From: Escherichia coli
GTDB taxonomy: Bacteria; Pseudomonadota; Gammaproteobacteria; Enterobacterales; Enterobacteriaceae
Length of the DNA: 64,000 nucleotides
NCBI RefSeq assembly: GCF_003790525.1
Contig: NZ_CP033635.1
Direction: 5' to 3' (one strand)
Of the stretch, positions 9,344 through 45,361 are shown piece after piece. Every line of letters starts with the position of its first letter. Within the stretch, counting starts at the first letter, position 1. The notes under the pieces are model-generated. The model worked only from the letters and a program-made list of their open reading frames with translations. It had not been told where the DNA came from and made no database searches. Position numbers and translations under genes: made by a program.

Positions 9344-11144
9344 GTGCAAACCTTTCAAGCCGATCTTGCCATTGTAGGCGCCGGTGGCGCGGGATTACGT
9401 GCTGCAATTGCTGCCGCGCAGGCAAATCCAAATGCAAAAATCGCACTAATCTCAAAAGTATACCCGATGCGTAGCCATACCGTTGCTGCAGAAGGGGGCT
9501 CCGCCGCTGTCGCGCAGGATCATGACAGCTTCGAATATCACTTTCACGATACAGTAGCGGGTGGCGACTGGTTGTGTGAGCAGGATGTCGTGGATTATTT
9601 CGTCCACCACTGCCCAACCGAAATGACCCAACTGGAACTGTGGGGATGCCCATGGAGCCGTCGCCCGGATGGTAGCGTCAACGTACGTCGCTTCGGCGGC
9701 ATGAAAATCGAGCGTACCTGGTTCGCCGCCGATAAGACCGGCTTCCATATGCTGCACACGCTGTTCCAGACCTCTCTGCAATTCCCGCAGATCCAGCGTT
9801 TTGACGAACATTTCGTGCTGGATATTCTGGTTGATGATGGTCATGTTCGCGGCCTGGTAGCAATGAACATGATGGAAGGCACGCTGGTGCAGATCCGTGC
9901 TAACGCGGTCGTTATGGCTACCGGCGGTGCGGGTCGCGTTTATCGTTACAACACCAACGGCGGCATCGTTACCGGTGACGGTATGGGTATGGCGCTAAGC
10001 CACGGCGTTCCGCTGCGTGACATGGAATTCGTTCAGTATCACCCAACCGGTCTACCAGGTTCCGGTATCCTGATGACCGAAGGCTGCCGCGGTGAAGGTG
10101 GTATTCTGGTCAACAAAAATGGCTACCGTTATCTGCAAGATTACGGCATGGGCCCGGAAACTCCGCTGGGCGAGCCGAAAAACAAATATATGGAACTGGG
10201 TCCACGCGACAAAGTTTCTCAGGCCTTCTGGCACGAATGGCGTAAAGGCAACACCATCTCCACGCCACGTGGCGATGTGGTTTATCTCGACCTGCGTCAC
10301 CTCGGCGAGAAAAAACTGCATGAACGTCTGCCGTTCATCTGCGAACTGGCGAAAGCGTACGTTGGCGTCGATCCGGTTAAAGAACCGATTCCGGTACGTC
10401 CGACCGCACACTACACCATGGGTGGTATCGAAACCGATCAGAACTGTGAAACCCGCATTAAAGGTCTGTTCGCCGTGGGTGAATGTTCCTCTGTTGGTCT
10501 GCACGGTGCGAACCGTCTGGGCTCCAACTCGCTGGCGGAACTGGTGGTCTTCGGTCGTCTGGCCGGTGAGCAAGCTATGGAACGCGCATCTACTGCCGGT
10601 AATGGCAACGATGCAGCAATCAATGCTCAGGTTGCTGGCGTTGAACAGCGCCTGAAAGATCTGGTTAACCAGGATGGCGGCGAAAACTGGGCTAAGATCC
10701 GCGACGAAATGGGCATGGCCATGGAAGAAGGCTGCGGTATCTACCGTACGCCAGAACTGATGCAGAAAACCATCGACAAGCTGGCAGAATTGCAGGAACG
10801 CTTCAAGCGCGTGCGCATCACCGACACTTCCAGCGTGTTCAACACCGACCTGCTCTACACCATTGAACTGGGTCACGGTCTGAACGTTGCTGAATGTATG
10901 GCGCACTCCGCAATGGCACGTAAAGAGTCTCGCGGCGCGCACCAGCGTCTGGACGAAGGTTGCACCGAGCGTGACGACGTCAACTTCCTCAAACACACCC
11001 TCGCCTTCCGCGATGCTGATGGCACGACTCGCCTGGAGTACAGCGACGTGAAGATTACTACGCTGCCGCCAGCTAAACGCGTTTACGGTGGCGAAGCGGA
11101 TGCAGCCGATAAGGCGGAAGCAGCCAATAAGAAGGAGAAGGCGA

Positions 11145-28717: not shown

Positions 28718-28793
28718 GCCCGGATAGCTCAGTCGGTAGAGCAGGGGATTGAAAATCCCCGTGTCCTTGGTTCGATTCCGAGTCCGGGCACCA
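28718..28793 (+). tRNA. pheU: tRNA-Phe (anticodon GAA)
   Basis: gcccggatagctcagtcggtagagcaggggattGAAaatccccgtgtccttggttcgattccgagtccgggcacca is a 76-nt cloverleaf with encoded CCA. Its position next to yjdC identifies pheU. Confidence 0.97.
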
Positions 28794-38472: not shown

Positions 38473-38916
38473 CTATATTTCCAGACACCTGTTATCACTT
38501 AACCCATTACTGGCCCGCTGCCGTAGATATTCCCGTGGCGAGCGATAACCCAGTGCACTATGCGGATGCCATTCGTTATAATGCTCGAACGCCTCTGCAA
38601 GGTTCTTTGCTGCCGTTAACCCGTCTGGTTTGGGCATGATACTGATGTAATCACGCTTTATCGTTTTCACGAAGCTCTCTGCTATGCCGTTACTCTCCGG
38701 ACTCCGCACCGCCGTGTTCTTCGGTTCAAGTCCCAACATCCGGGCGAACTGGCGCGATTTAGCCCCGACATAGCCCCACTGTTCGTCCATTTCCGCGCAG
38801 ACGATGACGTCACTGCCCGGCTGTATGCGCGAGGTTACCGACTGCGGCCTGAGTTTTTTAAGTGACGTAAAATCGTGTTGAGGCCAACGCCCATAATGCG
38901 GGCTGTTGCCCGGCAT
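38473..38916 (-). pseudogene. chimeric ORF: IS1 InsB N-terminus fused to IS2 OrfB (InsD) C-terminus
   Basis: The translation begins as IS1 InsB ([38 protein letters not shown]). It then switches to the rve-integrase tail of IS2 ([34 protein letters not shown]...[19 protein letters not shown]). Confidence 0.8.
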
Positions 38917-39110
38917 CCAACGCCATTCATGGCCATATCAATGATTTTCTGGTGCGTACCGAGTTGAGAAGCGGTGTAAGTGAACTGCAGTTGCCATGTT
39001 TTACGGCAGTGAGAGCAGAGATAGCGCTGATGTCCGGCGGTGCTTTTGCCGTTACGCACCACCCCGTCAGTAGCTGAACAGGAGGGACAGCTGATAGAAA
39101 CAGAAGCCAC
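38835..39110 (-). CDS. insA: IS1 InsA
   Basis: 91 aa beginning [43 protein letters not shown]. The start lies 55 nt from the IS1 end, as in IS1. Confidence 0.9.
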
Positions 39111-40337: not shown

Positions 40338-41942
40338 TTATTCCTGGAGTTCATTAAAGTTCTTTCGTAATACTTTGTAATCAAACACGTTATGACTGGC
40401 ATCAAAAACCACGGATTTCCCCTGCCAGCGGGTAATCACCTCCTCCGGCGTTTTCGGTTGAGCCGGTCTGGTTACGCCCATCCATGCATTAATCAGATAA
40501 TCATTATACGCAGTGGAAAAAACGCTGTTCACCGTCTGGCGATCGACATGCTCTCCCAGTGCCGGGCTGTACCAGATAAACATCGGAACATGATAAGCCT
40601 GCTGACTGGGTTTTATTCCACCATGAAAATAGGCATGTTCTTTTGTCGGGTCATACTCCAGACCGTGATCTGAAAAATACATGACGGATGCCTGACGCGT
40701 TTCCAGCATGGTGAAAACCTGTCCCAACAAACTGTCGGTATAATGAATGGAATTATCGTAACAGACTTCTTCTGTATCCAGCGGTTTAAACACGGCTTTA
40801 TCTCTGGGCCAGTTACTGCAAACCGGTTCATGGCTGCCCGTCAGATGCAGAACAATCAGTTTCCTGCTCCCCGGATTACTGTTCAGTGCTTCAGCCAGGT
40901 GTGGGAGCAGTAACTCATCATAGCCTCTGACATAAATTCTGTTTCTGGCCCGCATGGCGATACTGGCCACAGCCGTTCCGTTCTGTCGGAAAGCGGACTG
41001 CGCACTGAGCCACCAGGTATCGAACCCCGCCTGATTCGCCATGTTGATAATGTTATCAGGGTAATTACGGATATCATGATGCAGTACACTATCGGCAGAT
41101 AACGCCAGTGGAACAGCCAGCGCGGTGTAAGGTGCGCCACTGATTGCCTGAGTGAACAGTTTCAGTCGTGATTTCTGTTTCTGAAGCTCTGGTGTGGTAG
41201 GGCGCGAATACCCGTAAATGGACATGTTATCAGTCCTTGCAGATTCACCAATCACCAGAACAAATACGTCAGTGTTGTTATCCGTAATCACCAGATCGTA
41301 GTGAGGTATGGTATCAGCAATCGTCATTAATCTCTGATGCTCCTTTGCGGCCAGTGCAAAATAGTTCAGATTAAAGAAAGGGGTATATGTGGCAAACCGG
41401 GAAGCGACTATGTAAGGATCAACTTCATTTATTTGATACTGTTTCTTCAACGCAAACTGGAAGGAAGAATATAACGTTACTGTAATTAACAATAAAAATG
41501 TAATTACCGTGACCTTTTCCGATGGCAATGAGGACGTTTTATTTATTGCTGAACAGAAGAACAATAAAAAGAGGATAATAAATGCGATAACATAAACAAC
41601 ATACATCCTGAACATTCTTATTACTTCATCAGGATCTGTCTGAAGGATACTGATTGCAAAACCATCATTAAATGTTGTGCCAAATGTACACCATGAATAC
41701 AGGCTGATACTGATATCTGCAGCAGTCAGTAATGTGAACGGGAAGGCAAGAATCAAACGCAACGTAATCGATTTCATTGCCTTAATAATAAGAAGTGCCA
41801 GGATAAAGAATAATATCCGGTAAATCAGATGCGCTCCTGAGGATACAAGGAGATTAGAAAGGGTAAAGACAACCACTGATAACACGAGGCGCTTATCATT
41901 GCTAATCCGTGACCAGTGTATGAACGGAAGATTAATTTTCAT
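40338..41942 (-). CDS. phosphoethanolamine transferase (EptA/YhbX-type: N-terminal 5-TM domain plus sulfatase-fold domain)
   Basis: ORF 40338-42011. The likely start is MKINLPFIHWSR. It has an N-terminal polytopic region, then sulfatase-type motifs VLVIGESARTDNMSIYGYSRPTTP, HLTGSHEP and SDHG. Confidence 0.75.
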   Translation of the reverse strand: MKINLPFIHWSRISNDKRLVLSVVVFTLSNLLVSSGAHLIYRILFFILALLIIKAMKSITLRLILAFPFTLLTAADISISLYSWCTFGTTFNDGFAISILQTDPDEVIRMFRMYVVYVIAFIILFLLFFCSAINKTSSLPSEKVTVITFLLLITVTLYSSFQFALKKQYQINEVDPYIVASRFATYTPFFNLNYFALAAKEHQRLMTIADTIPHYDLVITDNNTDVFVLVIGESARTDNMSIYGYSRPTTPELQKQKSRLKLFTQAISGAPYTALAVPLALSADSVLHHDIRNYPDNIINMANQAGFDTWWLSAQSAFRQNGTAVASIAMRARNRIYVRGYDELLLPHLAEALNSNPGSRKLIVLHLTGSHEPVCSNWPRDKAVFKPLDTEEVCYDNSIHYTDSLLGQVFTMLETRQASVMYFSDHGLEYDPTKEHAYFHGGIKPSQQAYHVPMFIWYSPALGEHVDRQTVNSVFSTAYNDYLINAWMGVTRPAQPKTPEEVITRWQGKSVVFDASHNVFDYKVLRKNFNELQE

Positions 41943-42063
41943 AATAATTGAGAAAAAGCGATATTTCTGTCCGGCGCTGGTCGCTGAACATGCCGCGACA
42001 GGTGAATTCATTATTCTGAATAATCATAAAGCCACCACAAATGTAGCGGCGTAAACAGGAACG

Positions 42064-42348
42064 TCATGATGTTTTCTTTCGTGACAGAAGAGAACCGCAC
42101 ATACCACCCGCAATCATTATCATCAGGAATAACATCCCCAGGCCAACGATTACTCTTAATGCCGGATGAACCCGATCGGCGAGAAAAAATAACTCCATCC
42201 CGAAACCAATAACAAGCCAGGCCAGCGCCATTCCGACGAGCCCTTTTAACAGCAATCTCACGCTCCTCTCCTTCTGCATTCTTAACGAAAATGCCTTACA
42301 ATAACAGCAGCCGGGGAAGGCAACGCTGGCTGCTGAACGGTATGACAT
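42064..42348 (-). CDS. small hypothetical 2-TM membrane protein
   Basis: 94-aa ORF, possibly starting at the internal MQKERSV. It has two hydrophobic helices (LVGMALAWLVIGFGMELFFL and VIVGLGMLFLMIMIAGGMCGSLL) and lies immediately upstream of the transferase gene, in the same orientation. Confidence 0.45.
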   Translation of the reverse strand: MSYRSAASVAFPGCCYCKAFSLRMQKERSVRLLLKGLVGMALAWLVIGFGMELFFLADRVHPALRVIVGLGMLFLMIMIAGGMCGSLLSRKKTS

Positions 42349-42400: not shown

Positions 42401-42667
42401 TTACAGTTTATTCAGAATAAGGCATGCGGCCTGGTTTAATGCAATAAACTCCTGCCAGCTGTACTGAGACTGATAATTCAGTAAATACTGGTCTTCAACC
42501 CGGCAAATCTGTGGGCGTTTATCATAAATTGCACACAAATGAGAATCAGTCTGATAGTAACGGCAAATACCGTCACCACGATCCAGACATTGCGTTTCAC
42601 CCGCCCTGTTGACATGACGACAACAGGCCCCACACTGGTTACAGGGAAATGGAGGGTGTAATTTCAT
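42401..42667 (-). CDS. YkgJ-family cysteine-cluster (Zn/Fe-chelating, CxxCxxCC) protein
   Basis: 88 aa with the motif PCNQCGACC plus further Cys residues (CLDRGDGIC, CAIYDKRPQIC). Its ATG overlaps the stop of the upstream 523-aa gene by 4 nt. Confidence 0.65.
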   Translation of the reverse strand: MKLHPPFPCNQCGACCRHVNRAGETQCLDRGDGICRYYQTDSHLCAIYDKRPQICRVEDQYLLNYQSQYSWQEFIALNQAACLILNKL

Positions 42668-44235
42668 CGCTTATTTAACCAGTCACGAACAGAAGCCACA
42701 TTTCCTGACTCAAACGGCAACGCAATCCCTCGTCGGCGGACTTCTTCTCTCAGCAGAAGTCCGCGCTCTATCTCACTGTTTACGCTATCCAGATGAAGTG
42801 AAAAATGATTTAACTCGGCAGCATCAACAGAAAATTCCAGTGCAGTAAGTTCCACAAGATAGCGATCAAGTTCAGCATTGACTGCCTGAAAGTATTCCAG
42901 TGACCGCTGGAATTTGTCCTTAAATTTGTCCAGAAATGCCCATACCCGCTGCATAACCTCGCTATATTCGAGATAATAATTCATCACCAGCCCGAGAATA
43001 CCTGTCGTCAGCGCACCACAAAAGGCAGCAAGCTCTGAACCAAATGGGAAAATAAGGATCTGCGCCATCGCCTCATTTATCATCACCCCTCCGGCAACAG
43101 CCACACCTGCTGCTATCAGTTTAGTGACCGCTTTGGCTAACTGCCCCGGCGATAATCCCTCCGGATTAAATACCAGGACTTTAAAGGCCTGAACGAGATT
43201 GTTCCACATTTCCCTGATAAGCCGGACAATCATTCTTTCCGTTGTCAGGAATATATTTAACAGCGTTGTGGTAATACCTGACAGTATCCCTCCGATGACA
43301 CCATCTTTAAAGGCAATTAAAAAAGAACTGAATTTTTCCTGTACTCGTTCCTGGCAGGCACGTAATGCTGACGTTATTTCGGACAGGCATTTGCCGGCGC
43401 TGAATGAGTTCCGTTGCTGCCTGATAATATGCGGGATTCGTTCCCTCAGTTCGAACCAGATCTCGGCAAGAATAAGCCCCAACATCTGTCGCGTCCCCAT
43501 ACGAAAACCGGAATTAAGCGAAGCACTGGCGACAGCAGTAGCAAACTTACTACTCAGGTAATAGCTCTGATTAATCGTGGCCTCATATTTTTCCCGGGCA
43601 TATTTATCAGCCCTTTCCATACGCTCAGTATCTGCATCAGCTTTTTTTCTCAGACTTATCAGACGTTTCTTTTCCTTTTCTGTCAGCGTTGCCTGAGATT
43701 CAAGCTCTGCTATCTGCCTTAACGTATCTTCTCTGTTTTTCTGCAGCGTGCAAATAAACGCATCCATTGAGTCTGCTTTCTTTGATTTATTGAGCGACTC
43801 ATGAGTGAATGCCAGATTTGAAGCGTCATTTGCCAGTTCTGCACCATCCCGTTCAGCAAGAATTCTCCCCGGATCATCATGAATTTCTTTAGCGGAAATA
43901 ATATGATCCAGATTTTTTTTGTCGTCAGAAGCAAACACCTCGCCTGTATATGCATCAGTAAGAGTCCCTGCCTGATGCGCACGCTTTCCTTCCCGGTTCG
44001 TCGCGATATAGTTCTCATGGCTGTGGTAATGATGAGAATCATATTCGCCACGACCTTCATACCGCTGTCGCTCAGCCTCCGTGGCATAAATGCCATTACG
44101 CACATTATGGATAGTGTCAACATCACCACCCTTACGATCATTTAGCAACAGAAAATCCAGCCCGAATGATGTAACCAGGCTCTTCACCATGGTCTGATGT
44201 AACTCTTCTGTCCAGTCAAATTTTTCCACATTCAT
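42664..44235 (-). CDS. HNH-like nuclease domain fused to a coiled coil and a Gly/Ala-rich hydrophobic C-terminal region
   Basis: 523 aa. The N-terminal region contains GGDVDTIHNVR ... NLDHIISAKEIHDD ... ASNLAFTHESLNKSKK, which fits the D-H...N...N-K pattern of HNH nucleases (compare the Cas9 HNH DVDHIVPQSF...NKVLTRSDKNRGK). A coiled coil follows (aa about 160-230). Hydrophobic segments are GVIGGILSGITTTLLNIFL, LIAAGVAVAGGVMINEAMAQILIF and AAFCGALTTGILGLVMNYYL. Confidence 0.6.
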   Translation of the reverse strand: MNVEKFDWTEELHQTMVKSLVTSFGLDFLLLNDRKGGDVDTIHNVRNGIYATEAERQRYEGRGEYDSHHYHSHENYIATNREGKRAHQAGTLTDAYTGEVFASDDKKNLDHIISAKEIHDDPGRILAERDGAELANDASNLAFTHESLNKSKKADSMDAFICTLQKNREDTLRQIAELESQATLTEKEKKRLISLRKKADADTERMERADKYAREKYEATINQSYYLSSKFATAVASASLNSGFRMGTRQMLGLILAEIWFELRERIPHIIRQQRNSFSAGKCLSEITSALRACQERVQEKFSSFLIAFKDGVIGGILSGITTTLLNIFLTTERMIVRLIREMWNNLVQAFKVLVFNPEGLSPGQLAKAVTKLIAAGVAVAGGVMINEAMAQILIFPFGSELAAFCGALTTGILGLVMNYYLEYSEVMQRVWAFLDKFKDKFQRSLEYFQAVNAELDRYLVELTALEFSVDAAELNHFSLHLDSVNSEIERGLLLREEVRRRGIALPFESGNVASVRDWLNKR

Positions 44236-44281: not shown

Positions 44282-45361
44282 TTAACTCTGGGATGAAAAA
44301 TCATCAAATTTCACAACCGAACTGGCCAGTACATCATCCAGCTCATCCTTATTAATAACGTTCATTCCATTATCATCCGTTTCCATTTCAATAACGTTAT
44401 CTTTTATCACTGCCTCACCATTTTCCTGTTTCCGCGGTTTAAACAGTGGCGTTGTAATAATATCCGTCATAATAGCGGCCAGTGAATATCCATGGTCAAT
44501 AAGCACAATGACTTCATCTGATACACTGATATCCTGTTGTTCTGTAATAACAGAATGCATGGATTTAAGCGGCTCAAAATAGTGTTTAATAAATACAGCA
44601 TGCATTCTGTTCAGTGCAGCGAGAATTTCATCAACGTATTGATTAACTTTTGCAAAATGCTCCCGGGCCAGATTCATTTTCTTAACTGCCCGTGCAACAT
44701 CGCAGGCACACTGATGGGCATTTTCAAGAGCTTTCGTCGCATGTCTGTCGTAAGCCCAGCCCGCAATGGCAATCAACGGTGCAGCCACTGCGGTGCCTAA
44801 TACCATTGCGCCGCCGGCCATTCCCATGCCCCCTGCAGCCAGTGAGCCCCCACCAATTGCCGCCATCGTCGCGTTATAAGCCGCGGCACCAGAAAGCGCT
44901 GCAATGGGTGTACCTGTAGAAGCCGCAGCAAATGCCATCACTCCGCTATACACAGCAAAACCCGCAGCAGCCCCGGAAACTCCGGCAGCAACGACCGTAC
45001 TGAGATATTCTGTCGCTGAAATGGCCAGGTTCTGAATCTTATTGATGTTATGTTGCGGGACACTCAGTTTCAGGTCTTTATTGCCCTCTTTTTCCAGACG
45101 CGCCAGGAGCTCAGCAGCAATCCTGTCGAACTCACTGAAATCTTTACCAATCTCAAGCTCTTTATTTCCGAGCGTTGTTAATTTTGATGATGTCTGAGCT
45201 TCAGCCTGCTCAAATTTTTCTTTATGCTCCTCGTAACGCTCTTTTGCTTTTTCGAGGATATCCTCTGCTTCTGACTTTTTTTGATATCCATCGTAAGCTT
45301 TTTTTCCGCCGAATGCCGCAGCGCCGGCAGCCACACCCAAAATAATAAAAGGTAACGCCAT
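44282..45361 (-). CDS. glycine-zipper membrane protein, function unknown
   Basis: 359 aa. It has an N-terminal TM helix (MALPFIILGVAAGAAAFGG), a charged coiled coil, and then a roughly 95-aa Ala/Gly-rich hydrophobic block (VVAAGVSGAAAGFAVYSGVMAFAAASTG...GGGSLAAGGMGMAGGAMVLGTAVAAPLIAIAGWAY). The C-terminal part is a soluble acidic domain. Confidence 0.55.
   Translation of the reverse strand: MALPFIILGVAAGAAAFGGKKAYDGYQKKSEAEDILEKAKERYEEHKEKFEQAEAQTSSKLTTLGNKELEIGKDFSEFDRIAAELLARLEKEGNKDLKLSVPQHNINKIQNLAISATEYLSTVVAAGVSGAAAGFAVYSGVMAFAAASTGTPIAALSGAAAYNATMAAIGGGSLAAGGMGMAGGAMVLGTAVAAPLIAIAGWAYDRHATKALENAHQCACDVARAVKKMNLAREHFAKVNQYVDEILAALNRMHAVFIKHYFEPLKSMHSVITEQQDISVSDEVIVLIDHGYSLAAIMTDIITTPLFKPRKQENGEAVIKDNVIEMETDDNGMNVINKDELDDVLASSVVKFDDFSSQS

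Follow-up and report, generated by a model that had tools for sequence, protein, structure and literature searches.

Protein A, the 359-aa product of a gene at positions 44282-45361 (minus strand) of a 64,000-nucleotide stretch of the Escherichia coli chromosome (RefSeq contig NZ_CP033635.1; hereafter the window), was assigned by sequence comparison to the family of DinC, a subunit of the Dionysus defence system, relative to which it carries an added acidic tail. Its gene follows that of a WYL regulator and precedes the genes of two partner proteins, B and C, and we read this WYL-A-B-C cassette, by analogy, as most probably a variant within the Dionysus family of defence systems. On balance, we favour the view that A provides the membrane-active, DinC-type subunit of an A-B-C defence cassette under WYL control and that it acts together with B at membranes around incoming phage DNA, a mechanism that we infer from the comparisons below. 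Because a preprint has already described the DinC family and its defence role, and PADLOC lists it as a candidate, A is not a new kind of protein. What is new here is an architecture without TerB or DinA and with an HNH-like/transmembrane partner, a CxxCxxCC protein and a WYL regulator, of which we found no earlier description in the literature searched. The genes and segments concerned are as follows.

45410-46306, minus strand: WYL regulator (helix-turn-helix, WYL and WCX domains), 298 aa, first gene of the cassette; Pfam and PADLOC matches
44282-45361, minus strand: protein A, 359 aa, ATG start, open reading frame (ORF) confirmed; the subject of a preliminary description of this DNA
45305-45361, minus strand: A residues 1-19, N-terminal hydrophobic helix, then KK; from hydropathy and conservation
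44750-45007, minus strand: A residues 119-204, charge-free Ala/Gly-rich hydrophobic block; from composition and charge gap
44285-44431, minus strand: A residues 311-359, acidic C-terminal tail, beyond the DinC profile match
42664-44235, minus strand: protein B, 523 aa, with an HNH-like N-terminal domain, a helical linker and a hydrophobic C-terminal half; PADLOC PDC-M40B, 1.3e-42
43780-43914, minus strand: B residues 108-152, putative His-Me finger (HNH-like) motif LDHIISAKEIH...SNLAFTHESLNKSK; from invariant residues
42401-42667, minus strand: protein C, 88 aa, CxxCxxCC (YkgJ-type) cysteine cluster; Pfam CxxCxxCC, 2.6e-05, above the cut-off

Assignment of A to the DinC family

Dionysus is a three-gene system of Pseudomonas aeruginosa reported in a 2025 preprint, and it comprises DinA, which has a MAEBL-like domain and a transmembrane region, the TerB-like protein DinB, and DinC, which is presented as an alpha-pore-forming toxin with four transmembrane segments, a fold of this type being claimed from AlphaFold 3 (bioRxiv 10.1101/2025.09.30.679545). 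The DinC sequence given in Table S1 of that preprint opens with MPIPLIIGAAAAAAGLYGAAKG and includes ASTGTAISSLGGVAATNATLAWLGGGSLAAGGYGMAGGMMVLGG. A profile built from 34 A homologues matched DinC with 155 bits and an expectation value (E) of 9e-50, calculated for a single-sequence search space, and the match spanned profile positions 1-310 of 360 and DinC residues 1-309. In a direct BLASTP comparison, A and DinC were 57% identical over 82 residues of the Ala/Gly block, and the PADLOC profile PDC-M09A was matched by both A (3.5e-22) and DinC. Therefore, from the profile match, the identity within the block and the common PDC-M09A match, we assigned A to the DinC family. The two proteins have similar lengths (340 aa for DinC and 359 aa for A), both begin with a hydrophobic helix, with N-termini that align, and both contain the core ASTGT..L.G.AA.NAT.A..GGGSLAAGG.GMAGG.MVLG; A differs in carrying an extra acidic C-terminal tail of ~50 residues.

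Other searches gave little. Pfam and NCBIfam contained no family for A, and against the PDB the single-sequence search returned only noise and the profile search only coiled-coil noise. Of the remote-homology and structure comparisons that the preliminary description had suggested as a check, the profile comparison matched DinC and the PDB searches gave no match, and the Ala/Gly block was modelled at a predicted local distance difference test (pLDDT) score of only 25-38. The gene is labelled "hypothetical" by RefSeq in the island of the window, and many database entries name its homologues as methyl-accepting chemotaxis proteins; this identity was rejected, as neither Pfam nor NCBIfam gave a match for the signalling domain of such proteins. 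The database names in circulation, which make A a 'chemotaxis protein' and B a 'cobalamin adenosyltransferase', look wrong and misleading and are corrected here. Long relatives of A (480-789 aa) were also screened for fusions, and Pfam identified one starch-binding module among them; neither of the two longest (789 and 726 aa) resembled B.

Sequence features and predicted structure of A

The ORF given in the preliminary description was confirmed at 44282-45361, with an ATG start and with the quoted peptide present. The Ala/Gly membrane block reported there exists, but it is shorter than the roughly 95 residues stated, at 83-86 aa (82-83 aa for the quoted string). As delimited here (residues 119-204, 86 aa), it has zero charged residues between E118 and D205 and consists of 34% Ala and 19% Gly. 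Among the 34 homologues, the mean identity of the block was 86%, versus 51% for the rest of the protein, and the alignment contained invariant runs including AASTGT, GGGS and GMAGG. The high identity and the long invariant runs indicate that the block is not drifting low-complexity sequence; judged from this alignment, it is under very strong purifying selection.

The placing of the block between a coiled coil and an acidic C-terminal domain was borne out as far as the model reaches: the N-terminal flank (residues 27-118) was modelled as long helices, and residues 205-359 carry a net charge of -10, the final 60 residues accounting for -8. The acidic tail itself (311-359) is weakly conserved, with a majority fraction of 0.50. 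The N-terminus of A, which the preliminary description had missed, is a conserved hydrophobic helix, MALPFIILGVAAGAAAFGGKK, followed directly by KK; its Kyte-Doolittle mean over 19 residues is 1.89, and M1, P4, A11, G18, K20 and K21 are invariant in the homologue alignment.

An AlphaFold2 model of A, computed from the 34-sequence alignment, had a mean pLDDT of 65 and contained two long helices (3-91 and 186-274) and two shorter ones (103-126 and 282-303), which were mostly confident. Typical transmembrane hydrophobicity was confined to the N-terminal helix and to segments near residues 134 and 192, the only windows of the block above a Kyte-Doolittle mean of 1.3 being those centred at ~128-140 and 183-196. 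The best-conserved part of A (~144-182) is less hydrophobic than a typical transmembrane segment.

The block had further been described as built from repeated small-xxx-small motifs, the hallmark of glycine-zipper helices, and this did not hold. We counted 28 such pairs, against 27.5 +/- 2.3 expected from composition-preserving shuffles (p = 0.5), and the stricter pattern [GAS]xxxGxxx[GAS] occurred 6 times against 4.8 expected (p = 0.33). Because neither count was enriched over the shuffles, the small-xxx-small pattern of the block reflects composition only, and no glycine-zipper family in Pfam matched A at E <= 0.1.

Partner proteins B and C

In the structure model of B, the N-terminal domain reached a pLDDT of 83-93, and two short strands (108-111 and 141-144) surround the putative His-Me finger motif. 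Across 27 B homologues, D110, H111, N136, N140, N149 and K152 are invariant, and the motif follows the pattern LDH(I/V)..A.E.H.D...N..SNL..T....N..K, the spacing of which we take to be similar to that of the Cas9-type HNH motif. When 17 B fragments were compared with Pfam, HNH_4 was hit by 6 and GmrSD_C by 4, the best E being 0.008 and all hits lying below the Pfam cut-offs. Neither Pfam nor NCBIfam has a family for the whole protein, PDB and fold searches with B and with its motif returned no match, and profile searches gave only coiled-coil noise. We rejected the RefSeq name, 'ATP--cob(I)alamin adenosyltransferase', for which Pfam, NCBIfam and PDB provided no support. The hydrophobic segments of B lie within residues 312-413. 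From these features, we regard B as a putative membrane-bound nuclease, which could itself be the effector of the cassette. An hhalign comparison aligned B residues 233-511 with the C-terminal half of DinA-like proteins (probability 67%, E 5e-5), which is suggestive, although not proof, of a relationship between these C-terminal halves; the N-terminal domains of B and of DinA-like proteins are unlike.

The conserved gene for C (42401-42667 in the window; locus L001, 14263-14664) is unannotated in RefSeq record NZ_CP032989, with a gap at its position, and a Klebsiella plasmid record labels the homologue 'YkgJ family cysteine cluster protein'. It is likewise uncalled in the Vibrio cholerae loci. 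A second small cysteine-rich protein was seen near DinC-type genes: dinC of the P. aeruginosa Dionysus locus is followed by a gene (CDS_4656) for a zinc-ribbon protein of 70 aa with four cysteines, which its describers do not include in the system (bioRxiv 10.1101/2025.09.30.679545, Table S1), and homologues of this zinc-ribbon protein lie ~1 kb downstream of A-B-C in Pseudomonas mendocina (loci L010-L013, about 9640-9996). A small cysteine-rich protein may thus be a recurrent, overlooked companion of DinC-type genes.

Cassette architecture across genomes

To compare gene orders, one genome per species was scanned, which yielded 80 further loci in which ORFs were called and profile-searched; 55 distinct loci encoded a B homologue (B-type loci). 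A adjoined B in all 55, and C followed B in 50; in the remaining 5, the contig ended or the copy was pseudogenised. A WYL gene was found upstream of A in 43 of the 55 and a TerB gene between the two in 10, and the commonest arrangement (32 of 55) was WYL-A-B-C without TerB, as in the window. In the E. coli cassette, A starts 48 nt downstream of the WYL/WCX gene and is, as previously described, the first gene after the regulator; A and B are 46 nt apart, and the start of C shares 4 nt with the stop of B (ATGA). The genes for A, B and C are passed on together in defence islands and on plasmids, and jumbo phages carry them as an A-B pair. Representative loci were arranged as follows.

Vibrio cholerae: WYL-TerB-A-B, beside BREX or Wadjet
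Providencia: WYL-A-B-C, beside Kiwa, Hachiman and type I restriction-modification
Pseudomonas: WYL-A-B-C, no neighbouring system recognised
Zymomonas: A-B-C, between housekeeping genes, no recognised defence neighbours

SIR2 genes were also present among the neighbours of related cassettes. A also has more distant relatives, at 30-38% identity, in Campylobacterota, Clostridia, Bacteroidota, Cyanobacteria, Myxococcota and Bifidobacterium, where they adjoin TerB, C and a protein other than B, of 470-550 aa; the DinA-like proteins of these distant loci matched PDC-M09B. Searched against 1.8 billion representative proteins, the A profile retrieved 3939 clusters (50% identity) at E <= 1e-3 and 848 at E <= 1e-30. 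The DinC-type family is therefore very large, extending from Proteobacteria to Clostridia, Bifidobacterium and Cyanobacteria; it has no solved structure, and a single member has been studied, in the 2025 preprint. The cassette described here is the commonest among the close relatives sampled and is carried by roughly a tenth of complete E. coli genomes as well as by Klebsiella plasmids: a 4.4-kb query was matched in 590 of 5426 complete E. coli genomes, in 373 of which at least 80% of the query was covered.

PADLOC-DB v2.0.0 lists PDC-M09 (with its own A and B genes) and PDC-M40 (with a B gene) as unvalidated phage defence candidates. The cassette in the window pairs an M09A-type gene with an M40B-type gene and therefore fits neither candidate as defined. 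Literature searches for PDC-M09 and PDC-M40 returned no paper naming either, and the cassette is not described in the reports of the Juk system, of DefensePredictor or of a domain-centric E. coli screen.

Some loci departed from the common order. Two A paralogues were present in tandem before B in Psychrobacter piscatorii (L050, 7001-9273), a second A copy followed a WYL gene in Acinetobacter pecorum (L039, 3400-4404 and 7001-8074), and two A copies lay 0.9 kb apart in Succinimonas (L072, 1616-4392). In Campylobacter jejuni (L091, 6243-10175), the order was TerB-like, C, A and B, followed by a 181-aa CARF-domain protein (PADLOC CARF4--CARF_PDDEXK, 4e-43), which hints at a link to cyclic-oligonucleotide signalling in some cassette variants. 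In Snodgrassella alvi WF3-3 (L023, 6995-9715), A and B were each split into two ORFs and C was undetected, and this copy of the cassette appears to be decaying.

Relatives of the cassette are also found on mobile elements. A homologues were detected on 41 plasmids, among them a Klebsiella IncFIB plasmid with the order insertion sequence (IS)-truncated WYL, A, B and C, and in 7 records of Aeromonas jumbo phages (Ludhianavirus, ~260 kb), at 31-32% identity. In the one phage record inspected, LAh10 (MK838116.1; L094, 4941-7537; genes LAh10_79 and LAh10_80), a B homologue lies directly downstream of the A homologue, the two being annotated "chemotaxis protein" and "cobalamin adenosyltransferase"; Aeromonas phages D3, D6 and D9 also carry an A homologue. 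For the phage-borne A homologue or A-B pair, a role in superinfection exclusion or as a decoy is possible; a relative of A, DinC, defends against jumbo phages.

These occurrences raise the alternative that the genes do not serve host defence as such, and that mobile elements use A-B(-C) as a module for membrane stress, competition or superinfection exclusion, or that A is a passive anchor for B. It would account for the A-B pair in Aeromonas jumbo phages and for A-B-C on large plasmids, for the distant relatives that adjoin TerB, a family first linked to tellurite and stress resistance, and for the Zymomonas cassette, which sits amid housekeeping genes with no visible defence neighbours. However, a hydrophobic core with 86% identity exceeds what passive anchoring would call for, defence depends on the homologue DinC (bioRxiv 10.1101/2025.09.30.679545), the cassette is repeatedly found beside known defence systems, and superinfection exclusion by a phage would itself be anti-phage. 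We therefore consider this explanation very unlikely.

Regulation of the cassette

The regulator matched Pfam WYL (3.8e-09), WCX (1.6e-07) and HTH_11 (3.4e-04) as well as PADLOC WYL models (2.6e-22). A regulator of the same helix-turn-helix-WYL-WCX type lies directly upstream, on the same strand, in BrxR-BREX, CapW-CBASS and WYL-DdmDE, although the cargo that is regulated there is unrelated. WYL repressors of defence systems respond to single-stranded DNA (PMC13622015; PMC11662680). Upstream of the WYL gene in the window, we found one weak inverted repeat and no others. The count of promoter-like sites (8, against 10.0 in shuffles) showed no excess and was uninformative, and terminator-like sites numbered 10 against 4.2 in shuffles, one of them just downstream of a 94-aa ORF (42064-42348). 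The WYL gene is absent from 12 of the 55 B-type loci, and that of the Klebsiella plasmid is truncated. The cassette is thus tolerated without a repressor, which argues against constitutive toxicity.

Proposed mechanism and alternatives

What is known of the function of this family comes from Dionysus, which protects more than 10^6-fold and solely against phiKZ-type jumbo phages; defence is lost when DinB or DinC is deleted, and the DinA substitution H326A lowers it (bioRxiv 10.1101/2025.09.30.679545). Infected cells carrying the system were propidium-iodide negative at 90 min and viable, and they survived at a multiplicity of infection of 10, from which the authors concluded that no host-membrane pores were formed (bioRxiv 10.1101/2025.09.30.679545). 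Instead, early-infection vesicles and phage nuclei failed to form, foci of DinA and DinC appeared at the infection site, and AlphaFold 3 predicted that DinC binds the C-terminus of DinA (bioRxiv 10.1101/2025.09.30.679545). The one studied DinC protein is linked to an unusual attack that does not kill the cell and is aimed at the membrane vesicle around jumbo-phage DNA, and the cassette described here bears on whether the action of the family is general or specific to jumbo phages, on whether a nuclease is the true killer of the phage and on the role of the near-invariant core.

This phenotype weakens the possibility of an abortive-infection pore, in which A, once triggered, would oligomerise through its Ala/Gly helices so that the potential of the host inner membrane collapses and the cell dies before phage release, with B and C as sensors or regulators. 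The cells protected by Dionysus were not permeabilised and survived, the block has no glycine-zipper periodicity beyond its composition, and 12 of the 55 loci persist without a repressor. We also examined A as a candidate member of the ClyA/Hbl/Nhe/Smh alpha-pore-forming toxins, but its match to ClyA was no better than those to unrelated helical bundles, and this membership was rejected. Overall, we consider an abortive pore unlikely. The earlier proposal that A is a membrane-disrupting effector is retained in part: the gene lies in a defence-type cassette and has a homologue, DinC, that is described as alpha-pore-forming-toxin-like and as needed for defence, but Dionysus cells stay intact and the effector could be B.

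A different kind of membrane action would follow if A resembled the trunk and paddle of a bacterial dynamin-like protein, with a glycine-rich tip that enters one leaflet and bends, tethers or ruptures the membrane without a defined pore. The PADLOC profile LeoBC, of the dynamin-like proteins of the Eleos system, matched the A family over positions 371-564 of 601, with E values of 0.0079 for the E. coli protein, 1.8e-8 for a Pseudomonas homologue and 7e-8 for the homologue in locus L063. LeoB has a domain predicted to bind membranes that lies between its middle and GTPase effector domains, and LeoA's paddle is glycine rich (PMC4159319); moreover, the phenotype of Dionysus is loss of vesicles and not leakage of cells (bioRxiv 10.1101/2025.09.30.679545). 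The likeness amounts to a weak to moderate profile similarity over the paddle region and to a helical bundle with a hydrophobic, glycine-rich tip in both, whereas A and its neighbours have no GTPase domain, and the similarity could be compositional. We judge a paddle of this kind to be quite improbable.

We therefore return to A as the DinC-type subunit of a defence cassette, for which the following mechanism is proposed. A would be held in the inner membrane through its N-terminal helix and the Ala/Gly block, which may contribute two or more core segments, with both long helical arms and the acidic tail in the cytoplasm, and it would form a complex with the hydrophobic C-terminal half of B, comparable to that predicted by AlphaFold 3 for DinC and the DinA C-terminus. 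The WYL repressor would raise expression in response to single-stranded DNA from infection or DNA damage, as has been demonstrated for BrxR and CapW, and the A-B complex would act locally, either on the membrane where the phage genome enters or on the early-infection vesicle. There, A would perturb or open the membrane and the membrane-tethered HNH-like domain of B would cut the exposed phage DNA, so that the outcome would be protection of the cell rather than suicide; C may be a metal-binding accessory.

Several observations weigh against this proposal. BLASTP aligned no further segment of A with DinC outside the Ala/Gly block, and that block was modelled at very low confidence, which leaves its geometry, its topology and the choice between a pore and a paddle shape at the same low level. 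Neither BLASTP nor the B profile detected direct similarity between B and DinA. TerB, the counterpart of DinB and essential in Dionysus, is missing from the window, where WYL and A are just 48 nt apart, and is found in just 10 of the 55 B-type loci. The cassette here has an HNH-like/transmembrane protein (PDC-M40B type), a CxxCxxCC protein and a WYL regulator where Dionysus has DinA and TerB; the functional data concern the DinC system alone, which has these other partners and is clearly similar only over the block. Finally, Dionysus is proposed to act on the phage vesicle, a model that its authors put forward as a hypothesis in a preprint (bioRxiv 10.1101/2025.09.30.679545).

A bolder version of the proposal, against which we think the odds are considerable, is that WYL-A-B-C is a distinct system that physically couples a DinC-type membrane-breaching protein to a membrane-tethered HNH nuclease. 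Phage DNA hidden by lipid, at the injection site or in the early-infection vesicle, would first be exposed and then cut, and Aeromonas jumbo phages would have captured the pair for use against rival phages. If true, it would be the first time that a single complex of a defence system is seen both to open a membrane and to cleave DNA.

Genomic island and neighbouring genes

The window is a stretch of E. coli chromosome with 100% identity to many strains. The cassette lies in an island that starts at a tRNA-Phe gene (28718-28793) with an integrase. Also in the island are genes for sugar utilisation, remnants of IS1, an EptA-like gene, a type I restriction-modification system and an AAA-ATPase pair. 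Two neighbours were considered as members of the cassette and rejected: the 94-aa membrane ORF at 42064-42348, which has no homologue in any related locus, and the EptA-like gene, since the genes after C vary between loci. The latter (40338-42011, minus strand) encodes a phosphoethanolamine transferase of the sulfatase family (557 aa), whose N-terminal part weakly matches EptA/B, and lies beside the gene of a TPR protein; as an accessory modifier of lipid A or lipopolysaccharide, it could matter for phage receptors or polymyxin susceptibility.

An IS1 remnant at 38473-39110 (minus strand) marks a junction at which, inside the island, sugar-utilisation genes give way to defence genes. Its 91-aa ORF corresponds to the RefSeq coding sequence 'IS1 family transposase', and its 147-aa ORF overlaps an incomplete RefSeq pseudogene (integrase core domain, N-terminus missing). 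On the other side of the cassette, at 48094-50612 (minus strand), a 540-aa AAA ATPase overlaps a 313-aa uncharacterised protein by 46 nt. The type I hsdS and hsdM genes lie immediately upstream of this pair, the GC content of which is very low (0.33-0.35), and the ATPase matched PADLOC PDC-M55A (1.4e-40), NsnB (3.2e-37) and AriA (5.5e-22); the two genes are probably another candidate defence pair.

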